Assembly: GCA_964471945.1 (NCBI GenBank) | Contig: CAYYIJ010000001.1 | Location: 48,168 to 112,167 of the forward strand | DNA length: 64,000 nucleotides | Source: an uncultured Chlorobiaceae bacterium | GTDB lineage: Bacteria > Bacteroidota > Ignavibacteria > UBA10030 > SZUA-254 | Direction: 5' to 3' | In this document: piece after piece, positions 1-7,037 of the stretch | Position numbering within the stretch: position 1 is the stretch's first letter | Layout: every line of letters starts with the position of its first letter | Made by a program: the position numbers and the translations under genes | The notes under the pieces: model-generated | What the model saw: only the letters and a program-made list of their open reading frames with translations | Told to the model about the DNA's origin: nothing | The model's database searches: none

Positions 1-708
1 AAACTGCACATTGTCCATTGCCCAGAAATACCAGTTTGCCAGTTCGCTGAAAAATCTTTTGTTGAGCTCTTTGGTATCAAGTGTTTTCTGCCATGCGTTG
101 TGCAGCTCAACAAAGTCTGTGAACTGAAATTTATCTTTGAGTTCATCAAACGAAAGGTCAAACAAAATTTCAATGTGGGCTCTGTGCGGGTTTGCAATGT
201 TGATGTCTTTAATCAAGGTAACTTTTTCCAATACGTCCTTGTTTGTGCCACGCTTGCTTTCTCGGCGGTTAATCATTGATAAGGTGAGGAACTTTCCATA
301 ACGGAAAAATACCATCACGGGCATATCAAATAATCTGTTTATCAAGCGAGTAATATCTGAGAGTCGTCCTCGTGGGTAATCATTTTGTTTAAGCTCAACT
401 GCAAAAAACAGATACGATTGAATAAGGTCTGTGTCAATTGTATTAAAAAGCCCATCCCCAGATTTTATCTCATCATCGGTCAACTGGAAAATCAACTCGG
501 CAGTTTTAATCTCATCAAACCTTGACTGGTCAACACCTCGTTCGTCTGCCCGTCTCTTTAACGAATCAAAATTAATCTTGGTTTTCTTTTTACTTTGGTA
601 ACCGAGAACATTCAGGAGTACCAAACAATTGGATTCAACATTTCCTTTTGAAAACGCTGTGAGAGCTTCTTGGATCAGCTCTCGGTGTCGCACACCATCC
701 GTTTTCAT
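1..708 (-). CDS. Partial CDS, N-terminal 236 aa, continuing past the left edge. PD-(D/E)XK-type N-terminal domain resembling MmeI/YeeA-family Type IIG RM or DISARM DrmMI-like methyltransferase N-termini.
   Basis: Reverse-strand frame is open from the ATG (rc of 706-708) to position 1, checked codon by codon. ATGA overlap with the stop of the DUF1016 gene implies translational coupling. Motifs: GDGLFNTIDTD...LFFAVELK (D...ExK), then VMVFFRYGKFLTL. Assignment to a Type IIG/methylase family is inference from recalled MmeI N-terminal layout. Confidence 0.5.
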   Translation of the reverse strand, partial: MKTDGVRHRELIQEALTAFSKGNVESNCLVLLNVLGYQSKKKTKINFDSLKRRADERGVDQSRFDEIKTAELIFQLTDDEIKSGDGLFNTIDTDLIQSYLFFAVELKQNDYPRGRLSDITRLINRLFDMPVMVFFRYGKFLTLSMINRRESKRGTNKDVLEKVTLIKDINIANPHRAHIEILFDLSFDELKDKFQFTDFVELHNAWQKTLDTKELNKRFFSELANWYFWAMDNVQF

Positions 709-1775
709 TTTTCGAATCTCTCCTTTGCCGCAATGACTGCCTTATGGAGTTTTTCTTCGAGAAGTTTCTTCGGCGGCAAACCGGTCAGGTATTGCGCCAC
801 TCGGATATTTCCTTTATTGAGCATCAGGAGTTCAATGTGCTCATCTGATTTGTCAGCGCAGAGTATTAAACCAACGGGTGATTCTTCTCCGTTAGCTCGT
901 TCATACTTGTCAAGCCAGTTCAGATACAATTCCATCTGCGATTTATAAGCGGCTTTGAATTTGCCTAACTTCAAATCGATGACAACCAACCTGCGGAGTT
1001 TTCGGTGGTAGAAGAGAAGGTCGATGTAATAATCTTCATTATCAACAGTGATGCGTCTTTGTCTTGCTAAGAAAGCGAAATCGGTTCCTAGTTCAATAAT
1101 GAATCTTTGTAACTCAGAAACGATTGCAGATTCTAAATCCTTTTCGCTGTATGTATCTTTTAGTCCAAGAAAATCAAGAAAGTACGGGTCACGGAACACG
1201 AGGTCGGGAGTGAGTTTATTACCATCTCGAAGAGATTTCAATTCTTGTTTGATGAGCCTGTCGGGCTTCTTCGAGATTGCCGTGCGTTCGTAGAGCATAC
1301 TCGATATTTTGTCACGCAGAGTGCGAACACTCCATCGTTCGATACGGCACATTTCTGCGTAAAAATTACGTTGAAGATTATCTTCGAGTGCAATAAGCTC
1401 CACGAAGTGGCTCCAGCCCAATTGTTGCGACAGTGTCGCAACAATCTTAGAGCGTGGAAATTTTTCAGCAAATGTCACCATCCGTGTCAATGCACTGTAA
1501 GTAAATCCTTTTCCATATTCGTTTGTCAATTGTGCAGACAATGTCTGCAATATCTGTTTCCCGTATTCTGCCCTCTGTTCACCGAGGGTGCCCTTAAGAA
1601 TTCTTGTGCCGATTTGCCAGTACAACATGACAAGCGTAGCGTTAACTGTTTGAATGACCTGCGACCGAGCAGTCTCAATAAGCGAACGAATCTCCCCAAA
1701 TAATTTTTGCGTTGCTTGTTCTGGCTTTGCAGGCTGAGATTTGGTAATCCTTTTAAAGTTTTTTCTTTCCCTCAT
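705..1775 (-). CDS. DUF1016 / YhcG-family PD-(D/E)XK nuclease.
   Basis: 356 aa. N-terminal LYWQIGTRIL region and C-terminal YIDLLFYHRKLRRLVVIDLKLGKF (D...ELK-like) are typical of YhcG/DUF1016, which are frequently embedded in RM/defence loci. Confidence 0.8.
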   Translation of the reverse strand: MRERKNFKRITKSQPAKPEQATQKLFGEIRSLIETARSQVIQTVNATLVMLYWQIGTRILKGTLGEQRAEYGKQILQTLSAQLTNEYGKGFTYSALTRMVTFAEKFPRSKIVATLSQQLGWSHFVELIALEDNLQRNFYAEMCRIERWSVRTLRDKISSMLYERTAISKKPDRLIKQELKSLRDGNKLTPDLVFRDPYFLDFLGLKDTYSEKDLESAIVSELQRFIIELGTDFAFLARQRRITVDNEDYYIDLLFYHRKLRRLVVIDLKLGKFKAAYKSQMELYLNWLDKYERANGEESPVGLILCADKSDEHIELLMLNKGNIRVAQYLTGLPPKKLLEEKLHKAVIAAKERFEK

Positions 1776-1793
1776 TTCTTTTTTTCCCTATTA

Positions 1794-4700
1794 CTATTTG
1801 ATAATTAGCCAAGTAATCAGTTCAAAGTCGTCTTCAACCTTGGGTAACTGGTCTTCGTCAATCAATCTTCCACCTCTGCCCTCTAATTGCATTTCATTTC
1901 GTCTGTCAAGCAAAGATGCAATATTGCTCACTGCCTTTTGCATCATACCAGAATACAAATCCATTTTCTTACCCTCGTCAGTTTCTTCATTAAATAATCT
2001 ACACAATTCTTCCAAATATTCTTTCCTGCCTGAGCATAAAAGTCGGAACATTTCTAAGATTTGTTTTGGGTGTGTAAAACTAAAACGCACATCACCGTTG
2101 TTTCGTACATACACGAGATAATATGGTTGCAATGGATTTACCTTTTCAGTTGCTTTAGCATCTTCTTTTTGTTTCAAACAAAATATAACTCCTGGCTGCA
2201 ATACATCTTTCGCTTTTTCTGTAAGGTTTAAGCTCTCAACTTCTTTTGATGTAAGTGCATATATCCCAAAAAGTGCATCGTCCAATTTATCTTTGTTCTC
2301 TTGTAGATAATTAATCAGGTCAATACGAAAATCATCCAATGTAAATTCACTCAACGAGGGAATATTTTCGTTGAGGTCATCCATTTCTAATACTTCATCT
2401 TTCATCCTTAACAACTGTTTATCACGATAACGTAATTCTGTTTCTACCAAATCTTTTATTTCATCAGGATTTAATACATTATCTTCATGCGTTGCGGTTA
2501 CATCTACCAGTGCCATCCGTGCCTCAACACGATATTTCAGTTTGATATATTTGTCTAAGTTTGGCGTAGGCCAAAAGTTTACCAAATGAATCTTATCGTT
2601 CAGCGAACCGATGCGGTCAATTCTACCAAATCGCTGAATTACTCTGACTGGATTCCAGTGAATGTCATAGTTAATAAGGTAATCGCAATCCTGTAAATTC
2701 TGTCCTTCACTTATGCAGTCTGTTGCTATCAAAATATCAATCTCACCTTCCTGAGGCATAGCTTCTTTTAATTTTTCTCTTTGCTTGGCGATCGGGCAAA
2801 AGTTGGTCAGGATATGATTATACTCAGTGAGTTCCTTAAAACCTTTCGGTTGAAAATTTGTTCTATTACCACCCGTCCCACCAGTAACCATAGCGGTATG
2901 TAAATTTAATTCTTGCATTGCCCTATCAGCAATATTGTCATAAAGGTACGATGCTGTATCAGCGAAGGCAGTAAATATCAAAACCTTTTTATTGAATTTA
3001 CCGTCACGATTTTTGGTCGGGTTGTTAGCTTTTTGTGAAATAAGGTATCTCAGTTTCTTAAGTTTTGCATCACGGTCAGGAGTTACTGCTTCTGCATTAT
3101 CACGTAATAAGCTCAACTGTTCTTTGTCTTTTTTTAAGTCCTTAAGCCAGTTGTCAAGATGCAAATGTTTTAATTCGTATCTAAGTTTCTTACCAACTGT
3201 GTAAAGCTCATTGTATTCTTCGTCTTCTTCTCCTTCCATTTTTGTATCATCTAAATCAAATTCAGAGTCTTCGGCTTTCTTTTTTAGGTAATCTTTTATT
3301 TTTATTTCAAGTGCTTCGATTTTACTTACACATCGTTGCATTGTAATTTCAAATGATTCAACTGAACTTTCCAACCGTTTCAAAAAATTTACTTTCATCA
3401 TTCCAATCAAAAACTCTTCACGGTCTTCCTGCTTAAACACAGCCGCACCGATTGATTGTGCTTTCTCAGAATAATGTTGCTTAAATTCTTGTTTTACATA
3501 AGAAGATGGTTTGAATAATGATAATTCATATTTTTCGATTTCATCTTGTAATCTATCATAAGAAAGGAAGCTACCCTTAAGGTCAATGTCGCTGTAAATA
3601 GGGTGTGGTTTCCCTCTGTCAGGGAATAAACCAATTTTTTCCATCTCGTGGCGATAATATTTCTTTATGTGATTACGTGAGCGAGATATTGTAAGTTCAT
3701 CGAGTAACTTGAACAATGCACTATCTAATTTGTCAAGAAGTTCCTTGCTGCTGATTGCTTCTCTTTGTTTTTGCTTTGCCCAATGAGTGAATTGAGTTTG
3801 TGCAAGTTTTAAAGTTTCAGAAAAACTTTTTATTTGCAGTGTTTCTGTGAAAGCTTTATCATTATCATCTGTGATGATGCGTATTTGATTACGTAAATCC
3901 TTAAGGTTAGTGTTTACTGGTGTTGCTGAAAGTAATAATACTTTTGTTTTAACACCCGAACCAATAATATCCTGTAGTAATCTTTCGTAACGGCTCTTTC
4001 GTATAATTTTTTCATCTTCATCCTTTTTTCCTTTTGTGTCGTTACGAAAATTATGGCTTTCATCAATTACGACTAAATCGAAAGCTCCCCAGTTAAACTC
4101 TGCTAACTTTATCCCGTCTGCATCTGAAGTACCGGTAATCCGACTTAAATCTGTATGATATAATACTGTATATGAAAAGCGGTCTTTAGTGAAAGGATTT
4201 AATATATTCCCCTTGTGTGCTTGATATACTGTCCAATTGTCTTTTAACTTTTTCGGACAAATCACTAATACACGGAAGTTCTTAAGTTCAAAATATTTGA
4301 TAATTGCAAGTGCTTCATAGGTTTTACCTAAGCCAACACTATCGGCAATGATACAGCCATTGTGTCGATTAATTTTATTTATCGCTGACTTAACAGCATC
4401 CTTTTGAAAATCGAACAATGTGTTCCAGATTTGAGTATCCTTAAGCGTTCCACCTTCAGTTAGTAGGTCTGCTGATTTTTGCTTTTCTATAAAATCGTAG
4501 AAAAGATGATAAAGAGTTTTGTAATAGATAAATTCAGGTGAATAATCATGATATAGTTGTTTAAGATATTGAAGTACTTCATCTTTCACATCTTCTACCT
4601 CAACACCATCCATTTCATTGTTCCATAACTTAGTGAACCATAATCTTAAATCTTCTCTATCACGTTTGCTGTCTACTTCCAGATTCAGTTCGATGTTTTT

Positions 4701-5171
4701 ATAGGTTGATAATCCCAGTCCCCTAACAGTGAAGTTTGAACTTCCTATAATAGCATCCTCTATACCGTTATTGTTGATATGATAGAGTTTGCCATGAAGA
4801 AAATTAACTTTTTTTACTGAACGAATTTCAACTTTCTTTTCAATCCAATCCGAACATTCTCTTGCAATACGGTTTTGCTCAAGTACATTCACAAGTTCAA
4901 TATTTTCATCTTGAATCATGAATGCTTTCTTAGATGCTTTAGATGGGTCGAGGGATTTGGTAAAACTTGGGTCACCATATAAAAACCGAAGTGAATTGAT
5001 TTGTCCCAATTCATTTTTCAATGCTTCATAAGCATAAATAGTGAAAAATGCAGAAACGACAGACATGTCACTCCCCGGTTTGATTTTTCCCTTTAAGAAA
5101 TCACCTACAGAACCATGCTGATGATTGTCTTTTATGGAAGATAAATTTCTTTCTCTTGATGTATCAGCCAT
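1794..5171 (-). CDS. Fusion protein: N-terminal PLD-like (HKD) nuclease domain + SNF2/Rad54-family helicase + ~300-aa uncharacterized C-terminal domain.
   Basis: 1125 aa. HKD-like motif LHGKLYHINNNGIEDAIIGSSNFT near the N-terminus. SNF2 motifs: SVGLGKT (I), VVIDESHNFRN (II), LLLSATPVNTNLKDL (III), ILIATDCISEGQNLQ...HWNPVRVIQRFGRIDRIGS (V/VI). Confidence 0.85.
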   Translation of the reverse strand: MADTSRERNLSSIKDNHQHGSVGDFLKGKIKPGSDMSVVSAFFTIYAYEALKNELGQINSLRFLYGDPSFTKSLDPSKASKKAFMIQDENIELVNVLEQNRIARECSDWIEKKVEIRSVKKVNFLHGKLYHINNNGIEDAIIGSSNFTVRGLGLSTYKNIELNLEVDSKRDREDLRLWFTKLWNNEMDGVEVEDVKDEVLQYLKQLYHDYSPEFIYYKTLYHLFYDFIEKQKSADLLTEGGTLKDTQIWNTLFDFQKDAVKSAINKINRHNGCIIADSVGLGKTYEALAIIKYFELKNFRVLVICPKKLKDNWTVYQAHKGNILNPFTKDRFSYTVLYHTDLSRITGTSDADGIKLAEFNWGAFDLVVIDESHNFRNDTKGKKDEDEKIIRKSRYERLLQDIIGSGVKTKVLLLSATPVNTNLKDLRNQIRIITDDNDKAFTETLQIKSFSETLKLAQTQFTHWAKQKQREAISSKELLDKLDSALFKLLDELTISRSRNHIKKYYRHEMEKIGLFPDRGKPHPIYSDIDLKGSFLSYDRLQDEIEKYELSLFKPSSYVKQEFKQHYSEKAQSIGAAVFKQEDREEFLIGMMKVNFLKRLESSVESFEITMQRCVSKIEALEIKIKDYLKKKAEDSEFDLDDTKMEGEEDEEYNELYTVGKKLRYELKHLHLDNWLKDLKKDKEQLSLLRDNAEAVTPDRDAKLKKLRYLISQKANNPTKNRDGKFNKKVLIFTAFADTASYLYDNIADRAMQELNLHTAMVTGGTGGNRTNFQPKGFKELTEYNHILTNFCPIAKQREKLKEAMPQEGEIDILIATDCISEGQNLQDCDYLINYDIHWNPVRVIQRFGRIDRIGSLNDKIHLVNFWPTPNLDKYIKLKYRVEARMALVDVTATHEDNVLNPDEIKDLVETELRYRDKQLLRMKDEVLEMDDLNENIPSLSEFTLDDFRIDLINYLQENKDKLDDALFGIYALTSKEVESLNLTEKAKDVLQPGVIFCLKQKEDAKATEKVNPLQPYYLVYVRNNGDVRFSFTHPKQILEMFRLLCSGRKEYLEELCRLFNEETDEGKKMDLYSGMMQKAVSNIASLLDRRNEMQLEGRGGRLIDEDQLPKVEDDFELITWLIIK

Positions 5172-5515
5172 TTTAGATTTACTATTATGTCAATACTGTT
5201 ATGGATTAAACTTTCAATATACCATCTCAACAAGCCGTCATAAATGTAAGGGAAAAAGAAAGAAGAAGCAAAATCATCCTCAAGGAAACGTGACTCCCAA
5301 ATTAAGACTACCCCCTACATCTTTTTTAGCTTTTTCTTAGAGAGCATGCTTATACCTTTGTACCTTCAAGAGCCGGTGTAATGGAGTAACACTAGGCATA
5401 CCCCCACCAATAAAAAATCCTAACAATCTACTGTTAGGGTTAACCTAATCCACCAGAAAAATCCATCCTCCCTAATAGAAATATAAAAATTATTCCCCTT
5501 AAGTTGATTAATGTT

Positions 5516-6360
5516 TCAATTTAAAGGTATAGAAATCTTGTTGACCGCATTATGAAGCTCACTCGCTGCAAGATGAGAATAAACCTCAGTAACCTTCACA
5601 CTGGAATGCCCAAGAAGCTTCTGCACCTCATAAATGCTCACCCCATCCTGTACAAGCCAGCTTGCAAAAGTATGTCTCAAGCTGTGAAAGTGGAGTTTAT
5701 CGTTTAATCCTGCAACGCTTACATACTCTTTAAATTTATGAGTAACAAAACCCTCTTTGACCTTAACATCGCTAAGCGGTAGTGTTCGCCTTTTGCCCTG
5801 TTTTGTCTTAAACGTTGGATTGCTCTTAACCTGAATTAGCTTTCGCTGCAAATCAACATCCTGCCAGCGTAAGTTGATAATTTCTCCACGCCTCATTCCT
5901 GTCAATACTGCAAATATTACTATTTCCTTAAGCCAGTTTTCTTTGATAATCAAAATGAGTTTTTGAAAGTCTTCTTTGGTGAAAAATGCAGGAGGCAATT
6001 CAGGTGTGTGTACAAGCTGTACGTTGCTGAACGGATTGCTTTCAATATGCCGTGGAGTAATATCAGTGAGAAGGCAATCTCCTGCGACCGTGTGAAGGTG
6101 TCTCAATCCAATTACAAAAATATCTACTGTTGGCTTTGCATAGGTTGCCCTTGCGTAAGAAAGATACTCTTGTGTGAGTTGTGTAAGGGTTTTTGTTTTT
6201 GGCTTCGACTATCATAACGCCTTGAACTCTGTCAGCTTTTTCAGCGCTTCATACTTGAGAGAACATTTTGAGGATTTCCAGCGCTTCTTACCTTGTTCAT
6301 CAGAATAACCAATATAATAAATGCTATTACGCTTCCAGAGGTAAAACTTTGGTGAGAGAA
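5516..6360 (-). pseudogene. Tyrosine recombinase/integrase, apparently frameshifted and N-terminally degraded.
   Basis: Catalytic C-terminal domain is in one frame (LRHTFASWLVQDGVSIYEVQKLLGHSSVKVTEVYSHL; R..HxxR..Y). It is extendable only to an ATG at 6212-6214. A short arm-binding-like N-terminal segment (KFYLWKRNSIYYIGYSDEQGKKRWKSSKCSLKYEALKKL) lies in a different frame at ~6210-6360, with no ATG, and ends in a stop that overlaps the other frame. Confidence 0.55.
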
Positions 6361-6373
6361 CCTATCTTTTTAG

Positions 6374-6448
6374 TCGGAACGGCGGGATTTGAACCCGCGA
6401 CCCCTTGCACCCCAAGCAAGTGCGCTAGCCGGGCTGCGCCACGTTCCG
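6374..6448 (-). tRNA. tRNA-Pro (anticodon GGG).
   Basis: 75-nt cloverleaf read on the minus strand: acceptor CGGAACG/CGTTCCG, anticodon stem CTTGC/GCAAG with loop TTGGGGT (G37), T-arm GCGGG-TTCAAAT-CCCGC, discriminator A, no encoded CCA. Confidence 0.85.
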
Positions 6449-6475
6449 TCTGGATTGCTGATATAAAAAAACTAC

Positions 6476-6886
6476 TCAGGTCAGCTTCACCAATAGTTCT
6501 TCAAGAAATCTTTTAATCTCAACCATATCATTCCTCAAACGATTCTCAGTCGTTTTTTGTTGTTGTGTCGGCGTTGAGGGTGCCGTTGTGGTTACACCTT
6601 CGTGTATCAACTCTAATTGTTCACCTGTTTCACTATCGGGCATATAATCTTTGAGAACCTGTTTAGCTCCTTCAATCGTATACCGTTCTTCACGCAGTAA
6701 TCTTTTTATGAACAAAATGAGTTTAATATCCTTGCTCGTATATATACGGTTACCCGCTCTATTTTTTGCAGGTCCAAGTTGCTCAAATTCCGATTCCCAG
6801 TACCGGAGTACATATTGTTCAAGGTCAGCAATTTTACTAACCTCACTGATTGAATAATACAGCTTCTTTATTCCTAATTGTTTCAT
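6476..6886 (-). CDS. MerR-family transcriptional regulator.
   Basis: N-terminal HTH YYSISEVSKIADLEQYVLRYWE is typical of MerR. 136 aa. Confidence 0.7.
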   Translation of the reverse strand: MKQLGIKKLYYSISEVSKIADLEQYVLRYWESEFEQLGPAKNRAGNRIYTSKDIKLILFIKRLLREERYTIEGAKQVLKDYMPDSETGEQLELIHEGVTTTAPSTPTQQQKTTENRLRNDMVEIKRFLEELLVKLT

Positions 6887-7037
6887 ATTAAATCCATTTG
6901 AGGATAAAATTTGATATTAATCATACCAAACATACGGAAATTCTCAATTAAAGGCAACATCCGTTCATTTGGAAATTCATGTAACCGTGTATCTAAATAT
7001 TTTTTGCTTTAACGATATAAAACGATTATATTTGACC

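Follow-up and report, generated by a model that had tools for sequence, protein, structure and literature searches.

Does a bacterial protein that joins a nuclease-type domain to an SNF2 ATPase in a single chain act on its own, or is it one component of a larger system? The question is raised by a gene at positions 1794–5171 (minus strand) of the window analyzed here, a 64,000-nucleotide stretch of contig CAYYIJ010000001.1 from an uncultured Chlorobiaceae bacterium (GenBank assembly GCA_964471945.1). The 1,125-aa product carries an N-terminal phospholipase D (PLD) domain with an HKD motif ahead of an SNF2 helicase core, and an earlier note, made from the sequence alone and without giving a strand for the gene, had considered it a plausible stand-alone effector. 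We find instead that the gene heads an operon ending in a large methyltransferase gene, and that its homologues keep the same kind of partner throughout a survey of many phyla. We consider it probable that the open reading frame (ORF) encodes the restriction (R) subunit of a two-component, ATP-dependent defence operon that resembles restriction-modification (R-M) systems and has the large methyltransferase (M) as its other component.

The interval 1794–5171 is a single unbroken ORF of 1,125 codons and a stop, with an ATG start on the minus strand; the plus-strand reading is riddled with stops. The exact protein is already present in public data, and its ORF, Pfam and PADLOC profile matches lead to the prediction of a restriction/translocase subunit. 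The N-terminal PLD/HKD nuclease-type domain (aa 10–208; 4548–5144, minus strand) is modelled by AlphaFold2 (AF2) with a predicted local distance difference test score (pLDDT) of 80–90 and contains the HKD motif LHGKLYHINNNGIEDAIIGSSNFT (aa 125–148, nt 4728–4799), the sole HxK(x4)[DNE] match in the chain. Such a motif is no chance match, the outcome that the earlier note had said would undo its assignment, because two Pfam profiles exceed their cut-offs: PLDc_2 (34.9 bits versus 27, E 1.6e-8, aa 99–183) and the RE_NgoFVII PLD domain (28.5 bits versus 23.8, within aa 99–185). As judged by these profiles, the N-terminus is a PLD/HKD nuclease-type domain. The classical HKD Asp is not conserved, and the protein has N133.

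The SNF2 ATPase core is likewise complete by its motifs, and every motif quoted in the earlier note is present exactly once. Lobe 1 (aa 245–430; 3882–4439, minus strand) holds Walker A (GLGKT, 280–284), DESH (370–373) and SAT (415–417), and lobe 2 with its brace helix (aa 701–895; 2487–3071, minus strand) holds the Helicase_C match and motif VI (QRFGRIDR, 846–853). In the AF2 secondary structure the lobes are separated by a long, mostly helical insertion (aa 431–700; 3072–3881, minus strand). ResIII and SNF2-rel_dom at aa 252–418 and Helicase_C at aa 795–855 all exceed the Pfam cut-offs, the SNF2-rel_dom match (33.9 bits versus 24.9) being limited to profile positions 1–67. The string QRFGRIDRIGS begins at aa 846, VDVTATHEDN at aa 889, and ITWLIIK closes the chain at aa 1119–1125, each occurring once. 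Sequence matches in the PDB are Snf2, Sth1 and RapA. The full-length AF2 model, built with 72 close homologues, has good confidence for the PLD domain and the ATPase lobes and a pLDDT of 30–55 for the tail. Foldseek places RapA at the top for this model (E 8e-13), followed by BAF/PBAF, Mot1, Rad54 and ISWI, and the alignment to SauUSI (7clg) spans 1021–1145 columns (E 5.7e-9). Across the 72 aligned homologues, H126, K128, G143, S144, N146, Walker A, DESH, SAT and motif VI are invariant; in a set of 54 diverse relatives K283, D370, E371, R847 and R853 never vary either, and R850 is shared by 53.

A first answer to the question comes from the gene's own surroundings. The helicase gene is followed, all on the minus strand, by an 18-nt gap, a DUF1016/YhcG gene, a 4-nt overlap and the methyltransferase gene. 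The window holds the first 236 codons of the latter (1–708, minus strand), translated as a DUF4391-like N-terminal region, before the gene runs off its left edge. A second contig (L001) is 100% identical to window positions 1–6397, adds 3.56 kb, ends 180 bp past the methyltransferase gene and gives the full partner of 1,361 aa. This protein matches Pfam Eco57I, N6_Mtase and MmeI_Mtase, with an N-terminal DUF4391 match below the Pfam cut-off, and carries a GxG S-adenosylmethionine-binding motif and NPPY at aa 1021; its best named profile matches are DrmMI and PglX. We predict a large gamma-class N6-adenine methyltransferase that recognizes its target through a region of its own and begins with a DUF4391-like module.

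The same coupling recurs far beyond the window. We surveyed 80 loci, one per GTDB species, from many bacterial phyla and one methanogen, and sought methyltransferase partners by tblastn with four methyltransferase queries. A fused DUF4391-methyltransferase homologue lies on the helicase's strand in 68 of the 80, downstream in 67 and upstream in one (L014). A further eight have a second architecture, in which a stand-alone 250-aa DUF4391 gene lies directly downstream and is followed by a Type III Mod gene (N6_N4_Mtase) and, wherever the contig extends that far, by a separate gene for Type III Res (ResIII plus RE_endonuc). The remaining four are uninformative, three stopping within 4 bp of the gene and one about 1 kb past it, so that a DUF4391 partner is found in 76/76 informative loci. 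On three contigs with gene and Pfam calls (relatives with 57–77% identity), the helicase is followed by a 1,150–1,380-aa DUF4391-Eco57I-N6_Mtase(-TaqI_C) protein, the two genes overlapping or abutting. Plasmids of Providencia, Lactococcus and E. coli (IncF) have, in the order of the NCBI annotation, a helicase-related or SNF2-related protein, DUF4391, a site-specific DNA-methyltransferase and a DEAD/DEAH box helicase, and a plasmid search with DUF4391 returns the same records as the helicase search, at adjacent coordinates. The linkage of helicase and DUF4391 is obligate, and the operon arrangement together with this linkage gives the R-M trait of nuclease and methyltransferase genes travelling together. 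Because all informative loci have a DUF4391 partner, the reading as a stand-alone effector is unsupported; the survey of neighbours for methyltransferases, which the earlier note had itself proposed as a check, overturns it.

The two architectures also bear on whether the PLD domain is the nuclease. We aligned 79 full-length helicases from the surveyed loci. The residues H-x-K...GSxN and E161 are kept in 67/67 distinct helicases with a fused partner, the window's protein included, with a single Lys-to-Arg change in L014, and the L044 helicase, whose contig gives no partner, also keeps H-x-K...GSxN. All nine aligned Type III-associated helicases (L068, L077–L079 and L083–L087; aa 122–150 in window numbering) have lost both His and Lys: the His position is occupied by Q, N, D or L, the Lys position by R, S, N, H or E, and N146 is replaced too. 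The PLD domain itself is retained in these proteins and their ATPase motifs are intact. Such varied residues at the former catalytic positions indicate relaxed constraint. Pfam detects no further nuclease domain in those minimal two-gene loci that were examined. The PLD site appears to be kept where the minimal system has no other Pfam nuclease and free to drift beside the Res nuclease, and this pattern of conservation in fused-type loci and loss beside Type III genes supports the PLD domain as the putative nuclease of the window's protein. DUF4391 was also considered as an active PD-(D/E)xK nuclease and rejected, Glu and Lys being unconserved in 65 aligned sequences with only L106 kept; the N-terminus of the window's methyltransferase (...DTD...FFAVELK) resembles the MmeI nuclease motif.

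How the helicase might meet its methyltransferase is suggested by the C-terminal region. The earlier note had put about 300 unmatched residues at this end; the absence of a match stands, with neither a Pfam family nor a solved structure to be found, but the length is about 237 aa (889–1125). The family-specific region at aa 896–1125 (1797–2486, minus strand) consists of a long helix (about aa 902–925), a disordered linker and a compact alpha+beta domain of about 185 aa (about aa 940–1125, nt 1797–2354) with five strands and five main helices. Refolded alone with AF2 (aa 896–1125) from an alignment of 83 sequences with 26–90% identity, the tail reaches a pLDDT of 84.8 and a predicted template modelling score of 0.75. 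Pfam matches nothing in the 1,125-aa protein past about aa 860, and among the 83 tails it finds no recurring family and no DUF3427, SRA, PUA or EVE match; DUF3427, which the earlier note had suggested looking for, was not found by the fold search either. Foldseek on the tail gives nothing at E ≤ 1e-3, the best hits being weak ones to RapA (E 0.042 with probability 0.23, and E 0.1; TM about 0.17), and the best match of a PDB profile search, a CAP repeat protein (E 0.0011 over 53 residues), is not a credible homologue. With aa 860–1125 as query we obtained 989 clusters at 50% identity; in the best 150 of these the region is always the C-terminus of proteins of about 1,000–1,200 aa or of shorter, probably truncated sequences, and no other architecture bearing the tail was seen there, as judged by sequence. 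One Gly is the only invariant residue of the tail domain, which has no conserved acidic or basic triad and no conserved polar or aromatic residues of a pocket and looks non-catalytic. Modules described as "inactive REase + alpha+beta" are known from the C-termini of related defence SNF2 helicases and of RapA (PMC12839542).

We compared pairwise distances between domains of the helicase and parts of the methyltransferase across 46 fused-type loci, with 2,000 permutations. For all helicase domains the distances correlate with those of M's DUF4391 part (r 0.51–0.69), and 0/2000 permutations give a value as high; the correlation is 0.14–0.24 with the methyltransferase core and about 0 with the recognition region. 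The tail and the helical insert co-vary most with DUF4391 (r 0.69 each), with bootstrap intervals for their excess of 0.11–0.26 over ATPase lobe 1 and of 0.01–0.18 over the PLD domain. Because the tail co-varies with DUF4391, it may dock the methyltransferase. The co-variation, and the occurrence of DUF4391 as a separate protein beside an unrelated methyltransferase family, are suggestive of DUF4391 as a helicase-facing adaptor, with a methyltransferase body and specificity region that would be exchangeable. The same values suggest that specificity and catalytic modules are frequently swapped behind a stable unit of helicase and DUF4391.

These observations can be put together in a mechanism in which M would methylate its own recognition sites on host DNA and so mark it as self. 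On unmethylated incoming DNA, site-bound M would recruit or license R, its DUF4391 module touching R at the C-terminal alpha+beta domain and/or the helical insert. R would use its SNF2 motor to hydrolyse ATP and translocate on double-stranded DNA. A PLD enzyme with a single HKD copy per chain needs two copies to meet for an active site, as in Nuc, BfiI and SauUSI. Two R molecules would be needed here, because each carries a single HKD half-site, and they could meet either in an M2R2 complex or after convergent translocation, completing a PLD active site that cuts the DNA. For the dimerization of R and for cleavage, this proposal borrows from established PLD enzymology and from the SauUSI precedent.

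Several points weigh against this reading. The Type III-associated clade is monophyletic in a tree of the SNF2 core, and the HKD loss may therefore be one evolutionary event rather than nine. In DISARM, a separate PLD protein, DrmC, is dispensable for defence in both classes (bioRxiv 10.1101/2021.12.28.474362), so a PLD domain beside an SNF2 motor is not automatically the effector. The window locus encodes two more nuclease-type modules, the PDDEXK domain of the YhcG protein and a Y1/HUH domain in the methyltransferase, and its division of labour may differ from that of the minimal two-gene form. The co-variation cannot separate physical contact from shared history, and faster-evolving domains correlate higher. 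Finally, the expression and activity of the window's partner methyltransferase are putative, and we found no experimental study of members of the HKD-SNF2 family in the literature.

The DrmC result also leads to the main rival, in which the SNF2 motor and the methyltransferase exclude unmethylated DNA by blocking its replication, as in DISARM or BREX, and the PLD domain is auxiliary or a back-up. Outside its own family model, the best named profile of the helicase is DrmD, as those of the methyltransferase are DrmMI and PglX, and the Type III-associated clade keeps its motor without the HKD residues, which points to a motor role independent of the PLD domain. Set against this are the retention of HKD, but for one K-to-R change, in 67 fused-type sequences of many different phyla, which argues for selection on catalysis, the lack of any other Pfam nuclease domain in the minimal two-gene loci examined, and the absence of DrmA and DrmB (DUF1998) and of BrxA, BrxB, BrxC and PglZ from the window with L001 and from the three annotated contigs. 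We regard such exclusion as unlikely, and give still less weight to a protein that works alone in the manner of SauUSI, its C-terminal domain reading a feature of foreign DNA such as a modified base before it translocates, dimerizes and cuts without a partner. SauUSI has the same order of parts (PLD, superfamily 2 (SF2) ATPase, C-terminal domain) and aligns with the full model, and HmaA alone is reported to be sufficient for defence in the Hma system (PMC11232893). Yet every informative locus has an adjoining DUF4391 methyltransferase or DUF4391 with Mod, often with overlapping start and stop codons, a modification-dependent nuclease is not expected to travel with its own methyltransferase, and the tail has no match to the domains DUF3427, SRA, PUA or EVE and no conserved pocket residues. 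A self-sufficient enzyme of this kind is in our view improbable.

The structural likeness to RapA raises a last alternative, namely a housekeeping or transcription-linked SNF2 protein whose tail would be an already known accessory domain and whose PLD-like domain would have no catalytic role. Foldseek ranks RapA first for the full model and also for the isolated tail, although the latter match is not significant, and one plasmid record annotates a homologue as rapA. The protein nevertheless scores only 54.5 bits against a cut-off of 576 with the NCBIfam RapA model and was rejected as a member; its catalytic HKD residues are invariant, its distribution over phyla is patchy at about 58% identity, with copies on plasmids and on islands flanked by integrase or tRNA genes, and its methyltransferase link is obligate. 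We give a housekeeping role hardly any credence. The restriction subunit of a two-component operon is the reading with which we continue.

A bolder extension covers both architectures. HKD-SNF2 and DUF4391 would form a portable motor-adaptor cassette that joins an SNF2 translocase to unrelated methyltransferases, to gamma-class Eco57I-like enzymes by N-terminal fusion of DUF4391 and to beta-class Type III Mod by a free DUF4391, with docking through the tail and/or the helical insert. The PLD site would be kept where it is the sole nuclease and would have decayed beside Type III Res, leaving a nuclease-dead motor that assists the Type III enzyme. We put this forward tentatively, as a proposal that falls somewhat short of an even call.

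The family to which the protein belongs is very large. A homologue search gave at least 8,000 clusters at 90% identity, of about 1,100 aa, and the best 120 of these are all of about that length with the same Pfam content. Identity is about 58% throughout Bacteroidota, Calditrichota, Gemmatimonadota, Poribacteria, Mesorhizobium and Accumulibacter, and such even values over distant phyla suggest horizontal spread under strong constraint. The PADLOC-DB profile PDLC01075 ('C3a139, HKD+Snf2') matches aa 31–1123 over profile positions 22–946 of 948 (E 7.6e-132), an end-to-end match including the tail, so the architecture has already been modelled as one family; the entry is a label only and lists no partner genes, mechanism or experiment. 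A Type III-associated homologue from Clostridium carboxidivorans matches the same profile just as well (E 1.3e-138). Homologues occur in 117 plasmid records (Listeria 20, Enterococcus 18, Bacillus 15, Escherichia 14, Acinetobacter 11 and others), and the plasmid hosts include Bacillus cereus and Lactococcus. Plasmids of E. coli (IncF), Lactococcus, Enterococcus and Listeria commonly carry the nuclease-dead SNF2 motor with a Type III system. Since only five records of a phage collection have a homologue, HKD-SNF2 is not a typical phage gene. One homologue (P0076) is 1,473 aa long, with an extra Pfam PNP_UDP_1 (nucleoside phosphorylase-type) domain, and is possibly a variant that has gained a nucleotide-targeting effector.

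Parts of this arrangement have been noticed before. The Aravind group described HKD-SWI2/SNF2 fusions as components of R-M systems in bacteria (PMC3417536, citing Iyer et al. 2006 and 2008). On the Lactococcus lactis FM03P plasmid pLd8 (orf33/orf34/orf35), a protein with PLD, SNF2 and Helicase_C domains adjoins a methyltransferase, type IIG in REBASE, that has TaqI_C for recognition and lacks a nuclease domain, and the authors predicted PLD as the restriction domain and pointed out a resemblance to class 1 DISARM (van Mastrigt et al. 2018, PMC6098607). Theirs is the same R-M reading as ours; both are predictions, and the comparison with pLd8 is by published domain content only. Neither DUF4391 nor the tail is discussed in that paper (PMC6098607), and our literature search for DUF4391 returned only unrelated mentions. 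The Lactococcus plasmid that we inspected has the split form, with stand-alone DUF4391 and Type III genes.

Class 1 DISARM (DrmD, DrmMI and DrmC with DrmA/DrmB) combines the same activities, an SNF2 motor, a PLD protein and an Eco57I-like N6-adenine methyltransferase, but in the window's protein PLD and SNF2 form one polypeptide and DUF4391 is the conserved partner module. Membership in DrmD was rejected with both NCBIfam models (NF038317, 154.8 bits versus a cut-off of 610; NF038318, 97.3 versus 950), as was membership in NF042964, "phospholipase D-like anti-phage protein" (133.6 bits versus 1,100). The Type-2 BREX-related, Hma-like systems (Rakesh & Krishnan 2026, PMC12839542) likewise have an N-terminal HKD domain, taking the place of other nucleases, on an SNF2 helicase with one or more C-terminal alpha+beta domains, a paired N6-methyltransferase and an R-M-like reading of the effector. 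Their hallmarks, a DUF499 AAA+ ATPase and DUF3780 (PMC12839542), are both absent from the Pfam-annotated neighbourhoods of the window with L001 and the three contigs, and membership was rejected; no search for DUF499 was made in the other 80 loci. Defence against phage T4 has been shown for the Snf2-nuclease HmaA, which carries a C-terminal PD-(D/E)xK domain (PMC11232893). The PADLOC HmaA profile matches the ATPase core of the window's protein alone (aa 598–919, E 2e-25), and Hma (PMC11232893) and HKD-SNF2 loci both show an insertion hotspot between the helicase and methyltransferase genes.

SauUSI (PDB 7clg), an ATP-dependent Type IV enzyme with a single N-terminal PLD domain, an SF2 ATPase and a C-terminal domain, provides a precedent with a solved structure for placing a PLD half-site on a motor protein. 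It differs in being modification-dependent, in having a DUF3427 reader and no methyltransferase partner, and in its motor, which is not SNF2; membership in SauUSI-like Type IV systems was rejected, there being no DUF3427 or SRA in the 83 tails, no such fold, and a methyltransferase partner in every informative locus. Type III R-M and Type IIG/IIL enzymes (Eco57I, MmeI) follow the same two-subunit logic of a methyltransferase with its own target recognition and an SF2 ATPase-nuclease. The partner methyltransferase shares the Eco57I/MmeI-type catalytic domain, and one HKD-SNF2 clade is attached to Type III Mod/Res genes. Unlike the window's protein, Type III Res has a C-terminal PD-(D/E)xK domain (RE_endonuc) and a non-SNF2 helicase; as a candidate it was rejected, the sole related match being the generic ResIII ATPase and the partner being gamma-class Eco57I-type rather than beta-class Mod. 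Type IIG enzymes have their own N-terminal nuclease, and in the partner methyltransferase this position is filled by DUF4391, whose putative ExK motif is unconserved.

Around this core the loci vary. The DUF1016/YhcG gene of the window (705–1775, minus strand; 356 aa) encodes DUF1016_N and a YhcG PDDEXK nuclease domain by Pfam and matches PADLOC PDC-S02 (E 1.3e-133). The slot between the two core genes is taken by a homologue in 7 of the 80 loci (L016, L024, L035, L039, L046, L047 and L055), and two more (L027 and L034) have one after the methyltransferase. Because it recurs more often than chance would allow, the gene may be an optional component that returns in many loci or a defence gene travelling as a passenger, not part of the core. 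The gap between helicase and methyltransferase is a variable slot in L010, L018, L019, L021, L026, L027, L037, L038, L040, L042 and L048 as well, where it appears, from ORF sequences alone, to hold AlbA_2/Schlafen-like proteins of about 460 aa, a VapBC-like pair, a Uma2-like nuclease and small genes. Behind the methyltransferase gene there is often a gene for an AAA_15/AAA_23 ATPase, whose start codon in many cases overlaps the preceding stop codon (L002:17161–19047, L004:17453–18991, L005:19830–21023 and at least ten further loci), and this SMC/OLD/Gabija-like ATPase is a possible optional third subunit. Some partner methyltransferases have extra C-terminal domains (L019:6612–11033, L029:13369–17937 and L024:14391–19085), DUF6577 in two and DUF3800 in one.

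In the window locus about 200 aa with a match to Pfam Y1_Tnp (IS200/RAYT-like HUH; L001:7370–7969) are inserted in frame into the partner methyltransferase, between the DUF4391/helical part and the catalytic domain. Further Y1_Tnp inserts lie at L036:11952–12386, L042:15924–16559 and L048:6910–7383, and three aligned methyltransferases from different phyla share the HUH motif (MPNHVH) together with the Tyr of 'YIxxNP'. The methyltransferase of the closest relative (L002) is without the insert, and L062 has a free-standing Y1_Tnp gene between the helicase and methyltransferase genes. The insert could serve to bind single-stranded DNA or act in nicking.

Upstream of the helicase gene, a truncated tyrosine-integrase gene (5516–6106, minus strand; 196 aa) encodes the C-terminal catalytic half (Pfam Phage_integrase), with an N-terminal remnant upstream of it in a different frame, and is what remains of the mobile element bearing the operon; ARAGORN finds a tRNA-Pro(GGG) at 6373–6448 (minus strand). 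Given this truncated integrase and tRNA-Pro, the operon sits on a degraded integrative island beside the tRNA gene, which is the probable integration site and island boundary. The GC content is 0.37 in positions 1–5171 and 0.385 in the rest of the window. A promoter and terminator scan of positions 1–6900 gave no more sites than in shuffled sequence.

The window's protein thus belongs, as an unexceptional member, to a very large family of R-M-like systems that is known from computational work and is one of the commoner families of prokaryotic SNF2 proteins. Its points of some interest are the universal coupling to DUF4391 in two architectures, the decay of HKD in the Type III-associated clade and a confidently folded tail without a solved homologue. 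If the R-M reading is true, a large share of the nuclease-less methyltransferases that are listed as type IIG would gain their missing restriction subunit, which would bear on the prediction of barriers to phage therapy, to the spread of plasmids and to the transformation of non-model bacteria. The forms with an intact PLD site and the PLD-dead, Type III-associated forms would then also be a natural experiment on the contribution of the SNF2 motor to restriction. Should the cassette reading hold, these systems would be a distinct and very widespread class of ATP-dependent restriction in bacteria and archaea, including E. coli IncF, Listeria and Enterococcus plasmids. According to one proposal, SWI2/SNF2 chromatin remodellers and TDP1 derive from bacterial R-M proteins of this kind (PMC3417536), and a tractable bacterial HKD-SNF2 enzyme would allow this idea of descent to be examined biochemically.

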